Source of the DNA: Carcharhinus amblyrhynchos
Lineage: Eukaryota
Length of the DNA stretch: 64,000 bases
Direction of reading: 5' to 3'
Assembly: GCA_965287045.1 (NCBI GenBank)
Contig: OZ336877.1
Span: 59,706,001 to 59,770,000, forward strand
The first letter of the stretch is position 1; each line of letters begins with the position of its first letter. A program made the position numbers and the translations under genes. The notes under the pieces are model-generated. The model saw only the letters and a program-made list of their open reading frames with translations. It did not search any database and had not been told where the DNA came from. Positions 4,152 through 62,330 of this stretch are shown one piece after another.

Positions 4152-5659
4152 TGTGGCTATAGAAGAATTGGGTTGCAATAACTGGCAACAAGGGACTGGT
4201 GTTTATTAACAGAAACTGAGCTACTTACATGCTATGTGTCTGCCCGTGCTCTGGGAGAACTCCTACACTCCCTACATGTAATCCCTTTTGTACTTGCATC
4301 ATCCAAACATCTATGTGACCACCCAGTCTACATCTTCGCCGATTAAGCTAGTGCAACCAACAGTACTGAGATATAACAATGTAGAAGAACAGTCACAAAA
4401 TATGAACTATTTACAATATATAAAATTAAACAAGGCTAACAACACATAACCATTTACAATGTGCAAAATACTGATTGAGGTACTATAGCTGGCATGTTGC
4501 TCAATGTGGCTCTTTTACCACCACCCCCCCGCCCCACCTTTTAAAACAAAGTCCATTCATAGACTAGTTTGTCACATAGTTCTTGAACCTTGCATATGAA
4601 TGTGGGATTGTACCAGTTGGCTGTGCCTGAGATACCCTTGGATTGGTGTCTTTGGTATGAATGGCATCAGGTGTCCTTGTGGTGCACCCCAAGGCTGCAA
4701 GGTTTGCTGAATTGCTCTCTGAAGGGTCCTCCCATCTCCATTGGTGTGGGCTGCCTGGATTACAGGCTGGATACATGGGGTTTGGTGGTGGTTGAAGGTG
4801 CTGAAGTACTTCAGTAGGTGACACCAGTTTTGTATATACTGAGAACCGTCTAAGGTGCCCACATAGCTGTTTGGCTCCTTTGAGGACTTAATCTTCTGTT
4901 CTGTGATTGATGGCATCCCAGTTGGAACAGGGCATGCTCTGGACCACAGAAACCTATGTTTCCCACCTTAACTCTTTGCTGCTTCTTTGCTGATGGCAGA
5001 TTCCAAGGTGAAACCTTTTGTGAAGAAGCTGGTTGTGTGCAGCATCACTATGGTCCCACACACAACACAATCTCTCACCCACTTGTCTGTGAACGTGCCA
5101 AACTTACATTTCTCTGAGAGAACTTTTTAAAGTCACAGTGACTGAATAGGCTCATCAAACTTTTGGTTGGCTGCATTGAATGCGAGTCCATCCAGCATGA
5201 TTTTTTTTTCAGGCATGCATATGTGCTCAAATCTTTTCAGTAATATTTCAGAATCCTCCTTCTCTTCCTCTGCTTGTAAAACAAAGGACTCGAATTTTTC
5301 AACCAACTTAGGGCCAGCTGAATCTAAGAGATGAACATCTGTACCTTCTTTGATTTGTCTGATAGGCTGGAACTGCAGTGGATACACTACTCTTTTTCAA
5401 ATTTTGTCAGGTTGTCTGTGATGTTTTCATCAAACATAGGCAGATCAACATGGCACAGCGCCTGTACCACTCTGCAGATTCCTGAAGCAATATAGAAGTA
5501 TTAGGTCGCAGTAATTGGCAATAAGACATGTTTATTAACAGGATCTGAGTAGCTATTACATTCCATGTATCTGCCTGCACTTTGGGAGAACTCTTGCGCT
5601 CTCAACATGTGATTGCTTTTGTATATGCATCATTCCAATGTCCATGAGACTGGTCTACA
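4152..5659 (-). mobile_element. Internally deleted Ty3/Gypsy-type LTR retrotransposon
   Basis: Diverged direct repeats at ~4152-4332 and ~5483-5659 (TG..CA ends). Gag-like remnant at 5133-5387 (ILLKRFEHICMPEKKIMLDGLAFNAANQKFDEPIQSL). Integrase C-terminal-like remnant at ~4564-4900 (PNSYV...QYIQNWCHLLK; ARFKNYV). Confidence 0.72.
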
Positions 5660-23904: not shown

Positions 23905-24562
23905 TTATTCTTTCTTGGGATGTGAGTGTCACTGACAAGGCCAGAATTTTTTGCCCATCTCTAATTGCCCTTGAACTGAATGATTTGCTCAGCCATTTGA
24001 GAGGATATTAAGAGTCTGGAGTCTCATGTAGGCCAGACCAGGTAAGGATGGTAGATTTCCTTCCCTAAGGGAACTTAGTAAGCCAAATGGGTCTTTATGA
24101 CAATTGATGATAGCCTTACAGTCACCATTACTGAGACTAGCTTTTTCAATACTCGAGATTTATTAATTGAATTTAAATTCCACCAGCAGCCATGGTGGGA
24201 TTTGAACATATGTCCCCACAGCATTAGCTTGGACCTCTGGATTACCAGTCTAATGACTCCACCATCTTTCCATATATAAAAGTTAAAGTTCATTTATTAG
24301 TCACAAATAAGGCTTACATCAACATTGCAATGAAGTTACTGTGAAATTCCCCGAGTTGCCACACTCTGGCGCCTGTTTGGATCAATGCACCTAACCAGCT
24401 CGTTTTTCAGACTGTGGGAGGAAACCAGAGCATCTGGAGGAAACCCACACAATCATGGGGAGAATATGCAAACTCCACACAGATAATGACCCAAACTGGG
24501 AATCAAACTCAGGTCCATGGCACTGTGAGGCAGCAGCGTTAACCACTGCCACCGTGCCACCC
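23905..24562 (-). mobile_element. CR1-group LINE tail (~23905-24270) followed by a tRNA-derived SINE (~24280-24562)
   Basis: The SINE has an HE1-like head and the alternative tail TTTATTAGTCACAA...CAATGAAGTTACTGTGAAA. Confidence 0.8.
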
Positions 24563-25530
24563 ATGTATGTGACCTATTTATGCCTATTCTCTGTTTGCTG
24601 TTAGCTAATCAGTCTGTATCAACATTAATATGTTACCGCTATACCATGCGTTCTTATTTTCTGTAGAAACTTTTGATGTGGCACCTTGCCAACTGCCTTC
24701 TGGAAAATAAGTGCACCACATCCAAAGGTTCCCTTTTATCCACATTGCTTGTTACTTTCTCAATGAACTCTAATAACTTTGTCCAACACAATTTCCATTG
24801 CACAAAACAATGTTGATTTGCTTGATAGCATTGAGATTTTCTTAAATGACCTCCTTAATAATAGATTCCAGCATTTCCCTATGAAAAATGCTAAGCCAAT
24901 TGGTCTGTAATTTCCTCAATTGTATCTCCCCACCCCCTTTCTTAAATAGAGGAGTTAATTTGCTATTTTCTGATCTGATGGGACCTTACTAGAATTTAAG
25001 GAATTTTGGAAAATTAAAACTGATGTATCTACTATCTCAGACTCTAGAATGAAGTCCATTAGGACCTGAGGACTTGTCAGCTTTTAGTTCTAATATTTTC
25101 ACACTACCTTTCTCTGGTGATTGTTTTAAGATTCCCCTCTTCCTTTCACCTCTTTTTACTTAAATCTTCACCTGTGGAGATAGGCAGAAAATATATGTTC
25201 AATTCACCCCCCGTTTCCTTATTTCCCATTGTTAACACCCCAGACTCACTCTCTAGAGGACCAACACTCATTTTACTCCTTCCCTTTTTAAATACCTGGA
25301 GTAACTATCTGTTAATATTTCGAATGATATTTCTCTCCTGCTTGAATTTTTCCCTCCTTATTATTCCTTTAGCCATTCTTTGCTGCTTCTTATATTCTGA
25401 TGTGGCGATGCCAGCGTTGGACAGGGGTAAACACAGTAAGGAATCTCACAACACCAGTTTAGAGTCCAACAGGTTTATTTGGTAGCAAAAGCCACAAGCT
25501 TTCGGAGCGCTGCCCTGTCTTACCTGATGA

Positions 25531-25897
25531 AGTATAAAGTCTGACAACACCAGGTTTTAGTCCAACCTATTTATTTGATAATATACTCACAAGCTTTTGA
25601 GGGGACTGCCTCTTCGTCAGGTGAATGGAGAGTTCTGGCCTTCCACTCACATTATCAGCCACTTCAGGTCTTGAACAGCAGGTTAGGTGTAAGGATTCGC
25701 GTTTTAATCAGTAATCTCTAAACTGTCTGTGCTTTATATGCTCTGTCTGAGGCCAGAACTCCCCATTCACCTGACGAAGAGGCAGTCCCCTCGAAAGCTT
25801 GTGAGTATATTATCAAATAAATAGGTTGGACTAAAACCTGGTGTTGTCAGACTTTATACTGTGTTTACGCCAGTCCAACGCTGGCATACCCACATCA
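25531..25897 (+). mobile_element. Inner fold-back PLE of a related subfamily, nested in the outer one
   Basis: Near-perfect inverted arms at 25531-25641 and 25750-25860, a 37-nt extension at 25861-25897, and TTACCTGATGA(AG) duplicated at 25520-25532 and 25898-25910. Confidence 0.87.
25765..25806 (+). ncRNA. Minimal type I hammerhead ribozyme motif (PLE-type)
   Basis: AUUCAC-CUGACGA-A-GAGG(CAGUCC)CCUC-GAAA-GCUU-GUGAGU. Helix I is AUUCAC/GUGAGU, helix II is GAGG/CCUC, the conserved core is intact, and a palindromic AAGCUU replaces helix III. AATAAA follows at 25816-25821. Confidence 0.72.
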
Positions 25898-26574
25898 TTA
25901 CCTGATGAAGGGCAGTGCTCCGAAAGCTTGTGGCTTTTGCTACCAAATAAACCTGTTGGACTCTAAACTGGTGTTGTGAGACTTCTTACTGTCTTATATT
26001 CTAACCAACCTTCAGAATGGCCACTAATCTTCACTTATAGTTACATCAAAATTTAGTTCTAATCAGACCAAAGGCTTCAAATCAATCATGTCAAAATGTG
26101 TAATTACTGCTTAAATTATTACTGTTATTTAGCCCAGAGACAAATATATCTCACTATTATTAGTATACCAATTGTGAAGTTATTGCTGGGAGGTATCTCT
26201 CCTGCACATTTAGATCACACCTAGTTTCAAACGGAATGGAAACATCATTGTTTCTTTCAGACAAACCTAAAGGTCAGCTGGCTTTCTGCTGACAGACTGC
26301 CAAGTGTAGGGACATGTCTTTAGATACATTAATAACAAACTTTGGCTAGTTCCTTCCTTAAATCAGTTTTAACACTTTGGTCTGTCACATTTAAATTTAG
26401 GAAAGATTTCACTAAATTAATCACGTTATGTTGAATACATGGAACTACATTGATTTTGTAGCCAACACTAAGGCAGTCATGAAACAGTGAAAGTCTAATC
26501 AGGCTATTTTATGATTCAGGATCTATTTTAATAATTTGAAGCTTTTTGATCAACAATACATGATGGATTATGCT

Positions 26575-26886
26575 TAATCATAGAATCCCAATGCAAAAGG
26601 AGGCCATTTGGCCCATCGAGTCCGCATTGACCACAGTCCCACGCAGGCCCTATTCTTGTAACCCCACATATTTTCCCTGCTAATTGCCCTGACACTAGAG
26701 TCAATTTAGCATGGTTAATCAACTCAACCCGCACATCTTTGGACTGAGGGAGGAAACCCATGCAGACACGGGGAGAATGTGCAGACTCCACACAGACAGT
26801 GACCTGAGGCCGGAATTGAACCCGAGTCCCTGGTGCTGTGAGGCAGCGGTGCTAACCACTGTGCCACAGTGCTGCCCCTGTGCCAC
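26575..26886 (-). mobile_element. HE1-like SINE, full length
   Basis: Tail, V-domain-like core (GGAGAATGTGCAGACTCCACACAGACAGTGACC) and tRNA head (GGAATTGAACCC...GCTAACCACTGTGCCAC). Confidence 0.88.
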
Positions 26887-47279: not shown

Positions 47280-50200
47280 GGGGCCCTAAGTGCTGATTCT
47301 AAGTGCCAGGCGGACTTGAAACTGGGAATGTTTCAGTTCCAACTTCTAGACCTGTTCTCAGGTGCCCCCATTTGCACTCTGCCTGAAAGGTAGCAATGAT
47401 TCTGAATGCACTGCACAAGTCCGTGGGAGTGGGTTAACGCAACTGAAATCCTGCAGCTCTGATCGCCACCTCCAACTGTGCATGTGCAGAAAAAATATGA
47501 TACAGTACCTGCCACATTGCTCCCAGGTCAGATAATGCCTCCCCCTGGCCCCCACAGACATTGCCCCATCCTCACAAAATTACTGACTGCCCTATCCCCA
47601 CCACCCAAACTGAGCATGGGCCCTCTTCCCTTCCCCTGCATCGATCTCAGGCAGAGAGATCCACTCTCCTCCCTCCAACCTACAGATATCAGACAGGGTG
47701 ATCCCCCTTACTCCCACCCCAGATCGTCCTGCACAAGGCTCCCATCTCCTCTGGACTCCAATGGCTGTGTGACACTTCCCTCTCTCTCTCTCCTCTGTCC
47801 CCAGACATTGAGTCACTGATCCACCACCTCCCCCTTCCCAACTCTGTCCCCCCACCTCCCCATCAACACACCTGCAAGTGTTCAATTGTCTTCCCCTCAA
47901 TGCTAACAAGCAAACTGCATGGAACTTGCTGGAATGCTCTGCTAATGAGAGGCAGTCCATTAAAAACTCAAGAATGGATAGGCAAGCAGGCATTCCTTCA
48001 CAAAATGTGCGCACAACCAGACCCCCGATTTCCTGAGGCGATCTGGGCAGGCTACTGGATGCAGCAGAGGCAAGGCAAGTCACCCTTTTCCCCCCAGGAG
48101 AATGCAGACCCAGGGGTCATAATGACAATGTGGCCTGAGAGGTAGTTATTCCTCCACTCACTTTGACACGTCATTGGGGGCACAAGTTTCAGGTGTGAGG
48201 GGCAAGGTTTAAAGGAGATGTTTGAGGCATGTTTATTTCTTAGCGACCATAACTGGGTGCCTGGAACTTACTTTGGGGGAAGACGTGGAGGCAGATACGA
48301 TAGTGACCTTTAAGGGCCACCTTTACAGCTACTTGAATGAGATGGGACTAGAGTCATATGGTTCCCAGAAGGGTAGGGGGTTACAAATCAGATGGCGACT
48401 ACAGGTTTGGAGGGCTGAAGGGCCTATTCCTGTGATGTAATTTTCTTTGTGCTTTATTCCACGTTCAATGGAGAAAAGTGAATCTATGTTTTGCATCCCG
48501 GATTCCTCTCCCTCCCTTGTACTTCACCTTGTGTCCTGTGCTGCAGGGACAGAACCAAATGCCCCAGGGCCTTCTGGACTCCAGGCCCTGCTGCAGCTCT
48601 CACCCATCCTGGTCCAGACAGCTCGGACGAGTCCTTGGAGGATATGGGTGAAGGGACCTCTGAGAGTGGCACCGTTTCGGTGTCAACTTCCACCTCATGA
48701 CTCACCATCCCAGACACTGACACATCGGTGGATCCAGTTAGTGGTGAGGCTTCTGCGTCACTCTCCAGTAAGCACGACACATTTGATAATATACATTGGA
48801 TGGAGGAGGGAATATCCAAGGCCTGTGGCACACAGGGGCCTGACGGAGGTGAAGACTCAGCTGCCCTCAGGCCACATGCTGGGCCTCTGAGATCACTTCA
48901 CCCTCAGATGTAGCAACAGAGCCAGGGAATGCAGGAGGGGCTGATGGCCACACTGGATCAACTGTGAAGCTGTTGGGAGGAGTCCCAAAGCTTTCAGGCA
49001 GACCAGACTGTCTTGCATGCTTCCCAAGCCAACACTGCAAGGTGGCATCTGCAGTGGAAAGCCTGGAGCAGGGGATCCTCACAGTGAGTGGCAGGCTCCA
49101 AGCGATGGCCGAATCACAATAGGCCATGGCCATAGGACTAAACAGGCTCCTCGAGATTCTGCGGCCCATGGCTGAAAGGCTTGAATGCTTGCAGGTGACC
49201 CAGTGCTGAGACACAGTAGGCTGTGGCAGCAGTCCCTGAGATAGTGGCCCAGTCACAGAGGCTTATGACTATGGGGCTGCAGAGCGTGGCCCAGTCTCAG
49301 GGCGCACTTGCTGCGGCCATTGACAGGTGGGCCCCCGACTCAGGTGGCCATTGCAGAGGGCTTGACCACCATGGGTAGTATGTAAGTGGTCCTCCGGGAC
49401 TGACAGTGCTTCTGGAGCTCACTGCAGAAGCACTGCCATCCCATGGAGTGACCCAGGGGCCCACAGGAACCCCAAGGAAGGGGGAAGGGCTCAAGCCCAT
49501 GCCAGGGCCTTCCAGCAAGGAAACTGTGGCTGTGGTTACACTCTCTGACTCCCCACCTTCCTGACACTGGGGCATTTCAGGGTTGGAGAGGGTGTCATGG
49601 AAACATTCCAGACAGCTGAAAGTAGGCTAGGACACTCAAGGTCCAGGGCCTCGAGAGGACACCTCCTCTTCAGTTCCAGCAGAACAGTTCCAAAAGAACA
49701 GCAAGATCGATTGGTTGCATCGCAAAAGCCATCTCTTCATTCTGAAGGGATTAGGGGGCAGGTTTGGAGATGGAGAGGAACTCGTGTAGAGGGTAAGGAA
49801 TGCTGCTTGACCCAGCCCATCAACAGTCACTGTCCATGCCCCCAATTCCCCCAGCCACATACTCCCCACAATCACAGCCCCCCAATTCCCCCAGCCACAT
49901 GCTCCCCACAATCACAGCCCCCCAATTCCCTCAGCCACACACTCCCCACAATCACAGCCCCCCCAATCCCCCCAGCCACATACTCCCCACAATCACAGCC
50001 CCCCCCCCAATTCCCTCAGCCACATGCTCCCCACAATCACAGGCCCCCCAATTCCCCCAGCCACATGCTCCCCACAATCACAGCCCCCCAATTCCCTCAG
50101 CCACACACTCCCCACAATCACAGCCCCCCCAATCCCCCCAGCCACATACTCCCCACAATCACAGCCCCCCCCCCAATTCCCTCAGCCACATGCTCCCCAC

Positions 50201-52077
50201 AATCACAGCCCCCCCATTCCCCCAGCCACATGCTCCCCACAATCACAGCCCCCCCCCCAATTCCCCCAGCCACATGCTCCCCACAATCACAGCCCCCCCC
50301 CAATTCCCCCAGCCACACTCTCCCCACAATCACAGCCCCCCAATTCCCCCAGCCACATGCTCCCCACAATCACAGCCCCCCCAATTCCCCAGCCACATGC
50401 TCCCCACAATCACAGTCCCCCCAATTCCCCCAGCCACATACTCCCCACAATCACAGCCCCCCCAATTCCCCCAGCCACATGCTCCCCACAATCACAGCCC
50501 CCCCAATCCCCCCAGCCACATGCTCCCCACAATCACAGCCCCCCCAATCCCCCCAGCCACACACTCCCCACAATCACAGCCCCCCCCCAATTCCCTCAGC
50601 CACATGCTCCCCACAATCACAGCCCCCCCCAATCCCCCCAGCCACATACTCCCCACAATCACAGCCCCCCAATTCCCCCAGCCACATGCTCCCCACAATC
50701 ACAGCCCCCCCAATTCCCCCAGCCACACACTCCCCACAATCACAGCCCCCCCCAATCCCCCCAGCCACATGCTCCCCACAATCACAGCCCCCCCAATTCC
50801 CTCAGCCACACACTCCCCACAATCACAGCCCCCCCAATTCCCCCAGCCACATGCTCCCCACAATCACAGCCCCCCCAATTCCCTCAGCCACACACTCCCC
50901 ACAATCACAGCCCCCCCAATTCCCCCAGCCACATGCTCCCCACAATCACAGCCCCCCCCAATTCCCCCAGCCACACACTCCCCACAATCACAGCCCCCCC
51001 CAGTCCCCCCAGCCACACACTCCCCACAATCACAGCCCCCCCAATCCCCCCAGCCACATGCTCCCCACAATCACAGCCCCCCAATTCCCCCAGCCACATG
51101 CTCCCCACAATCACAGCCCCCCCAATTCCCTCAGCCACATGCTCCCCACAATCACAGCCCCCCCCAATCCCCCCAGCCACATGCTCCCCACAATCACAGC
51201 CCCCCAATTCCCCCAGCCACATGCTCCCCACAATCACAGCCCCCCCAATTCCCCCAGCCACATGCTCCCCACAATCACAGCCCCCCAATTCCCCCAGCCA
51301 CATGCTCCCCACAATCACAGCCCCCCCAATTCCCCCAGCCACATGCTCCCCACAATCACAGCCCCCCAATTCCCCCAGCCACATGCTCCCCACAATCACA
51401 GCCCCCCCAATCCCCCCAGCCACATGCTCCCCACAATCACAGCCCCCCCCAATCCCCCCAGCCACATGCTCCCACAAGTACAGATCCTTGAAAAGTTGAG
51501 AGGCTGCAGCAGCGCAATTTGGAGGGATTTTTTGCATATCGTTCAGCTCGAAGAGAGCTGAGTGCACTCGGACCCAGCAGGATTACAAGACCTGAGGTCA
51601 GTGCTGAGACCCAGGTCCGTGCTGCAAATCAGACATCAGCGATTCTGCTGAACAATAGCCCCTCACCCCCTTCCCCCACCACACACACTCGCAGAAGCGC
51701 CACCAACACAAGAAAAGAAATGGCTGCAATAACAGGACACCCTTGAGCAACAGAGAGCCGTCGGACACTACACACTTACCTCCTCACTAACATTCACTGA
51801 CGGAACGCCTCAACTGGACTTTTATGGAGCATGCGTGTTTCGCACTGATTCTGGATTGGTGAATGCGGTGGTAAAAGGGGAAGTGCCGGTAAAGTTGAGT
51901 GCGCAGCTCATTATGTCAATTTAAATGCATTCAAATGGCCATCACTCCTATTTTCGGGCCTTGGTAAGGGACGAGCCAGTGCAGAGGTGGGTGAGGATTA
52001 CGCTACTCACCTCATATCCAACTTTATCAAGTTTTCGTGCCCAAAATTGGGTGCAACACGATGGTGAAATCAGGCTC
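47280..52077. mobile_element. Second degraded PIF/Harbinger-like element, containing a CR1 tail (~48145-48450) and the minisatellite
   Basis: ~48600-49500 resembles 27950-28700 (CACCATCCCAGACACTGACACATCGGTGG vs CACCAGCGCAGAGACACGCACCTCGGTGG; GTTGGGAGGAGTCCCA vs GCTTGGAGGAGTCCCA). TIR-like right end GTGAAATCAGGCTC. Confidence 0.55.
49838..51477. repeat. C-rich minisatellite, ~40 copies of a 39-44-bp unit (CCCCCAATTCCCCCAGCCACATGCTCCCCACAATCACAGC)
   Basis: Directly visible. Variation is limited mainly to C-run length and a few sites (ATGCT/ATACT/ACACT, CCCCC/CCCTC, AATT/AATC). Confidence 0.98.
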
Positions 52078-53153: not shown

Positions 53154-53755
53154 AAAGGGTGGTTTTTACTATTTTGTTGCAGGTATATTCTTTGGAGTGG
53201 TCAAAAAGCCCAGTTAAACATGATGTGCTTAACCTTTGAAATTAATTATTGCCTTGGCCACAAGGCAATAATTAATTTCACCACTTTCACCTCTCAGCAA
53301 TCTAATGGAAAGAAAATTGAATCCTATAGTAATATCTCCAGGCTGTCACAACATTCAGGCTTGGCTGTTAAGTGGCAAGTAACATTTGCACCACATAAAT
53401 GCCAGATAAGGATCATCTCCAACAAGAGAGAATCTAACCGTCTCCCCTTGACTTTCAAAGACATTAGCATCACTGAATCACCCACTATTAACATCGTGGG
53501 GGTTACAGTTAAACCGGAAACATAACTGGACCAGATACATAAAACCTGTGACAACAAGTTAGAGGCTGGGAACTCTGCAGCAAGTAACTCATTTCCTGAC
53601 TCCCCAGAGACTAAGGCAAAACTCAGGAGTCAATAATGTGATGGAACACTCTCCACTAGCCTGAGTGAGCAGAGCACCGAACACACGCAAGAAGCTCAAC
53701 ACCATCAAAGACAAAGCAGCCTACTTGATCAACACCCTATCCATCACTTTAAACA

Positions 53756-53790
53756 TTCTCGGCCTTTTGGCTAAGATCAAGTGTAGTATC
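53756..53790 (+). pseudogene. RNU2: U2 snRNA 5' fragment
   Basis: TTCTCGGCCTTTTGGCTAAGATCAAGTGTAGTATC, including stem-loop I and the branch-point-pairing GTAGTA. There is no Sm site and no 3' half. Confidence 0.92.
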
Positions 53791-54060
53791 AACATGCTGC
53801 ACTTGGTTGAAGTCATTAGGTGACATTTCAGCTTCATTTGAAGCAATCTTTTAAAGCTGCATCTTGGCCTTTTAGCTAAGATGCAAATAAAATCAAACCT
53901 TGGATGAAGAGCTATGCCTACTCCAATCAGCTTGGATCATGTAGATCAAGCCCAAGACAGGAGTTGAGAGCCCTGTCTTATCAGCTTGGATCGGGAATGT
54001 CCCAACTTGTTGAGAATCTGGATTGGACTTAATTTGACTGAGCTGGATTTAAAAAAAATT
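53756..54060 (+). mobile_element. U2-snRNA-headed short retroposon (candidate SINEU-like element)
   Basis: 53756-53790 matches U2 nt 6-40 exactly. A second U2-like 21-mer lies at 53862-53882, followed by several hairpins and an A8 end. The host LINE is continuous on both sides. Confidence 0.75.
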
Positions 54061-60560: not shown

Positions 60561-60644
60561 ATCAGCTGGTCCAGTCTGCTAGTTCTTCTTTAGGTGGTAA
60601 AGGCAAGTTGAGGAGTCCTCTTCCTCAGGGATGGGAGGAGATAC

Positions 60645-60895
60645 AGTAAGAAGTCTCACAACACCAGGTTAAAGTCCAACAGGTTTATCTGATAGTAAAC
60701 GCCACAAGCTTTCGGAACGCTGTTCCTTCGTCAGTGATTGGAAAGTTCTGAGCAGAACTTTCCACTCACCTGATTAAGGAACAGCGTTCCGAAAGCTAGT
60801 GGCTTTTGCTACCAAATAAACCTGTTGGACTTTAACCTGGTGTTGTAAGACTTCTTACTGTGTTTACCCCAGTCCAACACTGGCATCTCCACATC
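60645..60895 (+). mobile_element. Fold-back PLE (near-perfect hairpin plus ~35-nt tail) with hammerhead motifs on both strands
   Basis: Arms at ~60643-60750 and 60753-60861 with a 2-nt loop. TSD ATGGGAGGAGATAC at 60631-60644 and 60896-60909. Same family as 25399-25991. Confidence 0.9.
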
Positions 60896-62330
60896 ATGGG
60901 AGGAGATACCAGCTTACCTGACAAGCAAGCTTGGATGGAGATTGCAGAGCAAGTCAACTATTGTGGCTCACCCCCTGAACCTGGATCTGTGTCACAGGCA
61001 TGGCAATTCCCTTAGTCAGCCTGCCATTCCTCTTTACTCTTTGTAGTGTGTAAGAAGATTGGTTTAATGCTGAGGGAGTGACTATCCAGTCACAGGGAAT
61101 GGGATCATGCAGCAACATGTTTACTGAGAGGCATGGCTGCATCTTTAAGCTGCTATTCCCTCACAAAATTTAAACTGTGATTAAGCCCCATCAGAATTTC
61201 ACACAGCGAATGATGAAGTTAGTCTTTTTCTCATCTTGCAGTCTGGGTCTACTGATTATCATTTACTTTGCATATCTTCTTACAGCAAGCTGTGAAGTGC
61301 ACACACAATTGTTACAACTGGGTGAACTGGCTCCCCTTTATTCAGCCTTGGTTGGTCACAATAAAGATTTTGAAATCTATTTTTCCTATAGATGCCTTTT
61401 CCAATCCAAATGCAGCCAATCAAACCAGGTTTTCTTGATTTTGCACTTTTATTTAATAAGTTTATTAGTTTCTAAACCTGAGAAAAAAATAATATAAGAT
61501 GCAGCAATACACACACAGATCTTAGAAGTAAGAAAAGTTAGAGTTCAAATAAAAGTTAAAAGGATATATGATTAAATCCTTTGGTTGTTCTTGAGGCACA
61601 GATTGTTGAACGTTGTGGTCATTTGAAGTTAGCTGGTTTCCTTTAAAATCCTGGAGTTGAATTGAAGATCAGGTAACTGCACTTTGTTGGAGACAATCTT
61701 AGCTTCAGAGAAAGAGAGAGAGAGAGACTCCTTACTGCTCTTTCAGCAGTTTCTCCAGATGACATGGATAACTAATCTGTGTCCGGCTTGACCAGTTCTT
61801 AACTTCCTGTCTGTACATTCCACAAAAAGAATTAAATGGACATGTTGTAGAACAAGTAATCACATGTTTGATCTTTCATCTCAGAAACCTTTGGCACATT
61901 TCAAGGTAGAAGAAACCAACAGGAGGTGGAGTTATTTTATCCCCCACAGGGGTTTAGAATGTCTGTTGGATGTAACTGGCTGGTTAGCAGGTCCCATTGC
62001 CTTGACAGAAGTACAGTTAACTAAAATTCAACACTTTGCAATTTAATCCTTTCCTTTCAAGAGTTCCTTTTTGAAGTGGACCTTGATACCCACTCCCACC
62101 TCACCCCTTGAATGAAGTTTGATGCAACATGTCAGGGCAGTTCAGAATGTAATCCATATAGGAACTTTCCAGATAAGTGGCCAAGTTAAAGCATCATAAA
62201 TAGTGACTGATGGTAGCCATCTTTTGTCTGTTTCTTTTCTTGCTTTTTTAAAAACATGTCCTCTTTAAACAGGTCAATGTAGATAATGAGTTTTCACATC
62301 CAATCTTATGCACTTAGTCACTGAAAATAT

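Follow-up and report, generated by a model that had tools for sequence, protein, structure and literature searches.

Inside the stretch of shark DNA analysed here, one Penelope-like element (PLE) lies within another, and the question that the locus raises is what led the second insertion to that place. The sequence-only reading of this DNA had suggested that the endonuclease of the inserting element might prefer cruciforms or PLE sequence. To anticipate the answer, a younger PLE fold-back very probably inserted into an older one at a palindromic target that is characteristic of its family, the cut being likely the work of a dimeric GIY-YIG endonuclease.

A PLE fold-back nested in another

The nest lies in the window, the 64-kb stretch 59706001-59770000, of a 2.92-Gb assembly. 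By sequence comparison, the unit is a Neptune-type PLE fold-back nested in another; both copies are 5'-truncated, they lie in opposite orientation, and each carries a tail, an inverted arm and its own target site duplication (TSD). The features, in window coordinates, are as follows.

25383-25387, plus strand: left half-site (CTGCT) of the outer target, from empty-site scoring
25388-25398, plus strand: left copy of the outer TSD, 11 nt seen
25398-25516, minus strand: tailed arm of the outer element, the 3' end of the pLTR, truncated inside hammerhead stem II and lacking CUGAUGA
25515-25519, plus strand: left half-site (CTGTC) of the inner target, straddling the outer fold-back junction
25520-25532, plus strand: left copy of the inner TSD, with an orphan CUGAUGA at 25524-25530
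25531-25641, minus strand: inverted, tail-less arm of the inner element, hammerhead GAAA changed to AAAA
25639-25897, plus strand: tailed copy of the inner element, the last 259 nt of the young family
25765-25804, plus strand: complete minimal hammerhead motif of the inner copy, with a 6-bp stem I, a 4-bp stem II and a palindromic AGCU stem III
25861-25897, plus strand: inner 37-nt tail, whose end, in uncut pLTR-ORF junctions, coincides with the ORF start codon
25898-25910, plus strand: right copy of the inner TSD, giving the outer hammerhead its CUGAUGA (25902-25908)
25898-25991, plus strand: tail-less arm of the outer element, with a complete core and weak stems
25911-25915, plus strand: GGCAG, the right half-site of the inner target, contributed by stem II of the outer hammerhead
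25992-26003, plus strand: right copy of the outer TSD, including the twelfth letter
26004-26008, plus strand: right half-site (ACCAA) of the outer target

The outer TSD, TCTTATATTCT, is visible as an 11-nt direct repeat (25388-25398 and 25992-26002) and would fit a 12-nt stagger if one letter was lost at the tail junction. The inner TSD, TTACCTGATGAAG, is a 13-nt repeat (25520-25532 and 25898-25910), of which the first T and the last AG are equally assignable to the element. The inner arms (25531-25641 and 25750-25860) are identical at 109 of 111 positions and the outer arms (25434-25516 and 25909-25991) at 80 of 83, and folding the nested unit as DNA gave z = -27 relative to 20 shuffles. The two TSD pairs and two arm pairs bear out the nested double fold-back that the sequence-only reading had described, and the separate TSD of each copy confirms that there were two events. 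Each element has its 37-nt tail on one side only, the inner one on the plus strand (ending at 25897) and the outer one on the minus strand (ending at 25398), so the copies are in opposite orientation, as had been claimed. Since the tailed arms of the two elements share 92 of 118 aligned letters (78%), they represent two subfamilies, in agreement with the earlier view that these are related but distinct.

The evidence for the nest is the assembly together with the internal consistency of the structure. None of the listed Logan contigs (4 runs, 3 studies) spanned the inner junctions; contigs of 4 runs crossed the outer junctions, reaching only 26-29 letters into the element, which is below the 31-letter threshold. 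No RNA data set was present among the listed read-contig matches to the nest. Both nested copies are dead stumps, and the double hairpin arose as a by-product that serves no function. As an event the nest is ordinary and of a known kind, both its layout and PLE-in-PLE nesting having been published already.

Two related SINE-like repeats, 77% alike, lie at 24400-24560 and 26560-26870; we take them to resemble shark HE1 SINEs. Such repeats were frequent targets in our sample of the PLE family, often at the same spot (L024, L051). Elsewhere in the window are a 41-nt C-rich minisatellite of ~40 copies (49839-51477) and a 5' fragment of U2 snRNA (53751-53893), likely a truncated retrocopy, followed downstream by another, degenerate copy of its first 25 nt.

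The family to which the inner element belongs

The inner 259 nt recur at 96-99% identity in at least 38 other places, and the exact 20-nt inner tail was found in 372 genomic places. Taking all subfamilies together, the genome contains 36,519 tails, and arm motifs number 152,986 compared with 9,865 for the control. Long copies of the family, 95-99% identical to the inner 3' end, have single ORFs of up to 686 residues that encode RT and GIY-YIG. Pfam reported RVT_1 in all three ORFs examined and a GIY-YIG match in one of the three (E 3e-4) that, at 21.4 bits, falls below the Pfam cut-off of 22.6; the residues VVYLIRC..C..YIG are visible in this region of the ORF. A CX4CxxC linker, CHSNLCKTC, is located at residue 548 of P0001, DKG is present, and the CCHH histidines are found at NEH 613 and EHF 630. 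The best named homologues of the element protein are shark proteins (84-91%).

An ORF with RT and C-terminal GIY-YIG, a hammerhead motif in the pLTR and an inverted, 5'-truncated copy with a one-sided tail are the marks of an EN+ PLE, and all were found, with an inverted partner and TSD at 82 of 110 family sites. The identification as a PLE made from the sequence thus holds. In the portions of PMC8557442 and PMC3846280 that were available, the Neptune clade is described as having a C-terminal GIY-YIG, CCHH, a CX2-5CxxC linker, DKG, a pLTR hammerhead and inverted 5'-truncated copies, and the available part of PMC8557442 gives an inverted copy plus tail as the standard PLE layout. Our family has CCHH and a CX2-5CxxC linker between RT and EN, a linker that is common to Nematis; by the linker criterion of these two papers, as far as their available text goes, it would be classed as Neptune-type.

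Two other arrangements of the family were seen. L125:4065-8044 is a near-perfect 4-kb fold-back made of two 2-kb inverted element copies with open frames on both strands, and L157-L159 (G000:C7:109003051-109003289) form a head-to-tail 91-nt array of pLTR end plus tail, with at least 3 units.

Hammerhead motifs in the nest

The sequence-only reading had placed several complete or partial hammerhead motifs on both strands. Two complete cores do exist in the nest, both on the plus strand (25771 and 25902), but the motifs on the minus strand are defective: the inner arm reads AAAA for GAAA and the outer arm is without CUGAUGA. The same reading had placed the insertion in the hammerhead core of the outer element. 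The inner TSD indeed duplicates CUGAUGA, but the outer core was not split, given that the right TSD copy is still joined to stem II and GAAA while the left CUGAUGA is the orphan.

Stems I and II of the inner plus-strand motif fold, with z of -1.7. Folding of the outer motif does not give a hammerhead, and an Rfam search of the 64-kb window returned none. We regard the inner plus-strand motif as a candidate ribozyme on the strength of its sequence motif; the minimal hammerhead expected in a pLTR is present at the motif level only, with Rfam negative. Genome-wide, 70,411 hammerhead core motifs were counted, compared with 619 for the control.

Insertion sites share a palindromic target

As a sample of target sites, we used 110 unique tail junctions of the family other than the nest, drawn from one subfamily and the first contigs. 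A TSD of at least 9 nt was present at 82 of them, with 39 of 12 nt, 22 of 13 nt and 10 of 14 nt. Four of the 82, doubtful calls at least 11 nt from the tail (L036, L296, L309, L313), were removed before the matrix was made, leaving 78; the matrix itself was built from the 38 sites with an exact 12-nt TSD, in a register set without any motif.

Counting outward from the TSD edges, position 3 was C in 76 of 76 half-sites, position 4 was A in 73 and position 5 was G in 51. The motif amounts to ~10.5 bits, its left and right halves are alike, and there is little bias inside the TSD. The family target is therefore a palindrome, TG-NN, a TSD of 12 (or 13) nt, and NN-CA, with CTG..CAG as its best form; CTG and CAG were spaced by 16 nt in 32 sites and by 17 nt in 8. 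TG-N16/17-CA was found in 74 of the 78 sites, compared with 236 of 2,169 29-mers from the window, and in 13 of 13 further TSD-bearing sites, three of which have another tail type. A genome-wide test, which covers the tail-side half-site only and all subfamilies, found CAG 14 nt past the tail at 5,191 of 36,519 tails, versus 770 at the 30-nt control position.

The empty site of the inner element, CTGTC-13 nt-GGCAG, scored 13.7 bits, which is the top score along the 215-nt empty outer copy and lies within the top 8e-5 of window positions. This fit depends on the 13-nt class, to which 17 of the 78 sites belong; in the 12-nt registers the scores were -1.4 and -3.6 bits. The outer empty site, CTGCT-12 nt-ACCAA, scored 5.6 bits, in the top 0.4% of window positions. 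The window contains 1.6 sites per kb that reach at least 9 bits, and the plain inner copy contains none. The left half-site of the inner target is an accidental creation of the outer fold-back junction.

No palindromic PLE target was found in the literature searched, including passages of PMC12910113, PMC12602865 and bioRxiv 10.64898/2026.07.22.740005, a search that older PLE papers and Repbase reports lay outside, and the target rule, which we did not find described, appears to be new, as a variant of a known system.

A second fold-back of the outer type, at 60632-60910, has a maximal TSD of 14 nt (ATGGGAGGAGATAC); its right half-site fits (ACCAG after 12 nt) and its left half-site does not. 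At L191/L192 (G000:C5:14911820-14915946), a ~50-nt tandem repeat rich in CTGCAG has received many separate PLE insertions within 3 kb and is likely a motif-driven hotspot.

Tests for a preference for hammerheads, PLE sequence or cruciforms

In the same sites and in genome-wide counts, no enrichment for PLE, hammerhead or palindrome sequence was seen. When the inner copy was used as a BLAST query, PLE sequence lay within 40 nt of the tail junction at 0 of the 110 sites (95% upper bound 2.7%). Genome-wide, the core 9-mer within 20 nt past a tail gave 12 same-strand and 17 opposite-strand pattern hits, of which 5 and 3, respectively, were real PLE cores. With ~9.2 core-adjacent tails expected per orientation, or 4.6 if half of the hosts are older, hammerhead cores after tails are not in excess over chance. 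Similarly, the same-orientation arm motif CTGGTGTTGT was found within 90 nt past the tail 66 times versus 87 expected, indicating no preference for PLE bodies. At 77 empty sites, complementarity of the flanks at positions beyond the motif was 0.246, compared with 0.257 +/- 0.006 for re-paired flanks, and the best stems averaged 4.34 versus 4.30; the sites are not palindrome centres.

We did observe a second clean insertion with its TSD over a hammerhead core, in the other orientation, at L108 (G000:C6:4169095 region), and the nest locus is therefore not unique. An endonuclease that prefers cruciform apices or hammerhead/PLE DNA would explain this locus as well as the position of the inner TSD, which, in the empty outer hairpin, takes up 11 of the loop's 14 letters, and the D. 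virilis EN is cited, in the available part of PMC11167929, as requiring the tail for recognition. However, TG-N17-CA is matched at L108 too, where the host arm lies away from the apex; in the nest, the CTG and the CAG are not symmetric mates in the outer hairpin; and neither abutting PLEs, core-adjacent tails nor complementary flanks were raised in the counts above. We consider such a preference very improbable. The idea that the enzyme chooses its site was correct, but the choice is explained by the palindromic motif, a preference for cruciforms, hammerheads or PLE bodies being unsupported. A narrow form of the idea survives, in that PLE ends are re-targeted through their old TSD.

Old TSDs are used again

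The opposite-orientation arm motif was found past the tail at 145 loci versus 87 expected, with the excess at element ends. The sample used here consists of 92 rows from the first 100 listed of these 145 loci. Of the 92, 70 had a PLE partner: 15 at a gap of up to 7 nt, 23 at 8-14 nt and 32 at 15-76 nt. Among tail-to-next-end gaps of 8-76 nt, 23 of 55 fall at 8-14 nt, i.e., one TSD apart (P 1e-9), and in 9 of these 23 pairs the tail type and partner type are mixed. Three TSD copies surround two elements at L170, L177, L193 and L202, and with a mismatch at L185 and L224; we cite these clear cases alone, as a tolerant count of 10 of 27 includes at least one doubtful match (L213). The six shared-target loci each hold two independent PLE copies, some of different subfamilies.

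Since arm starts and tails partly rebuild the half-sites, the matrix predicts an excess at old TSDs. The mean predicted weight at old TSD copies was 46- and 13-fold over the window average; the medians are low, and 10% and 5% of the sites carry the mean weight. Inside PLE ends the predicted weight was 0.30, versus 1.9 outside. We conclude that the motif accounts for the repeated use of old TSDs.

At seven loci (L171, L178, L187, L199, L230, L236, L252) the tail runs directly into the end of another element, without a TSD in the middle, which suggests multi-template single events.

A single event of this sort, in which the template switched from one subfamily RNA to another, or else an assembly artefact, might be proposed for the nest itself. 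Multi-template events do occur, as gaps of up to 7 nt in 15 of the 70 tail/next-end pairs, many without an intervening TSD, attest, and the inner junctions are those that no listed contig spans. Against this, each copy in the nest has a separate TSD and a separate target that matches the motif, and the arms carry private substitutions that are not expected of a collapsed repeat, so that we hold this explanation to be about as improbable as a structural preference. Also very improbable is pure chance, in which random insertion among ~70,000 cores hits some of them: the core-adjacent tails agree with the expected numbers and the choice of host for the nest was partly chance, but family sites are far from random and the inner insertion took the top-ranked site of its host copy, so that the motif refutes chance as a complete explanation.

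A proposed mechanism of insertion

Insertion of the younger fold-back at the family palindrome leaves the question of how the site is cut and copied. Somewhat better than even, in our judgement, is a scheme in which a sequence-specific, dimeric nuclease recognizes a pair of CA(G) half-sites and both of the 12-nt 3' overhangs that it produces act as primers; the ends of the new copy rebuild half-sites, the scars are cut again, and elements stack between repeated TSDs. As the likely course of insertion, each protomer of a GIY-YIG dimer would nick one strand 5' of NN-CA(G), and the nicks would leave 12-nt 3' overhangs that both carry the TSD. Each overhang would anneal briefly to the RNA before priming, with synthesis from the bottom-strand end beginning at the tail start (close to the ORF ATG) and synthesis from the top-strand end ~38 nt upstream. 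The two truncated cDNAs would then join head to head, and repair would yield the order TSD, arm, tailed copy, TSD. At the nest, the right half-site came from stem II of the outer hammerhead, and the left was supplied, by chance, by the outer fold-back junction.

Two observations bear on the priming steps. Reverse transcription starts have modes at 0 (the tail end) and at -38, and both junctions show microhomology of 1-2 nt, with at least 1 nt at 50 of 63 tail junctions and 44 of 62 arm junctions, where 25% is expected. The dimer, the nick positions and the polarity of the overhangs are inferred, and a different part of the RNP could be what recognizes the motif. If the scheme is true, this palindrome would be the first to be defined as the target of a PLE, and the insertions would bear a direct footprint of obligate twin priming.

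Comparison with known systems

The GIY-YIG homing endonucleases I-TevI and I-BmoI are monomers that leave 2-nt overhangs and recognize long asymmetric sites with a short cleavage motif. The short cleavage motif is alike in the shark family, whereas its target differs in having two short symmetric half-sites 12 nt apart. In L1 twin priming, inversion arises by priming from both cut strands, as proposed here for the shark family.

For PLEs, AT-rich DNA, ATT and microsatellites have been reported as targets. A palindrome of 10 bits and a stagger fixed at 12 nt would place the nicks exactly and argue for a dimer that primes both strands; the motif also predicts hotspots and TSD re-use, and it supplies the right substrate for work in vitro. 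How PLEs cut and how they make inverted, tailed copies is called undefined in the available text of PMC8557442.

Minimal metazoan PLE hammerheads, as presented in the accessible part of PMC4209133, have an extra unpaired A before stem II, a short stem I and no real stem III; the nest shares these traits, including opposite-strand pairs 100-700 bp apart, with no notable difference from that description. For the Neptune clade, the linker has been proposed to mediate a microsatellite bias (PMC8557442 and PMC3846280, in the sections available). The shark family shares the linker and domain features that those sections describe, but its target is TG-N16-CA and not microsatellites, and no microsatellite insertion bias was seen among the 82 flanks of family sites.

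A close precedent for the nest is Pen2a_Av inside Pen3 of Adineta vaga, which the available part of PMC3846280 describes as being in opposite orientation, with an inverted pLTR, a 31-nt tail and an 8-10-nt TSD. It is likewise a secondary PLE-in-PLE insertion with a TSD; AT- or N-rich targets were invoked there, whereas the shark nest consists of ORF-less stumps and has a defined palindrome and 12-13-nt TSDs. According to the portion of PMC11167929 at hand, PAc, the Poseidon of Anolis, cuts and extends both strands in vitro, two RT start sites define its tail, and it is predicted to be a dimer. The both-strand extension, the two start sites and the predicted dimer agree with our proposal. By that same account, however, the Anolis element prefers ATT in AT-rich DNA and starts 111-118 nt into the ORF without homology, whereas the shark family uses a GC-containing palindrome and shows microhomology, its starts lying at the ATG and 38 nt upstream of it.
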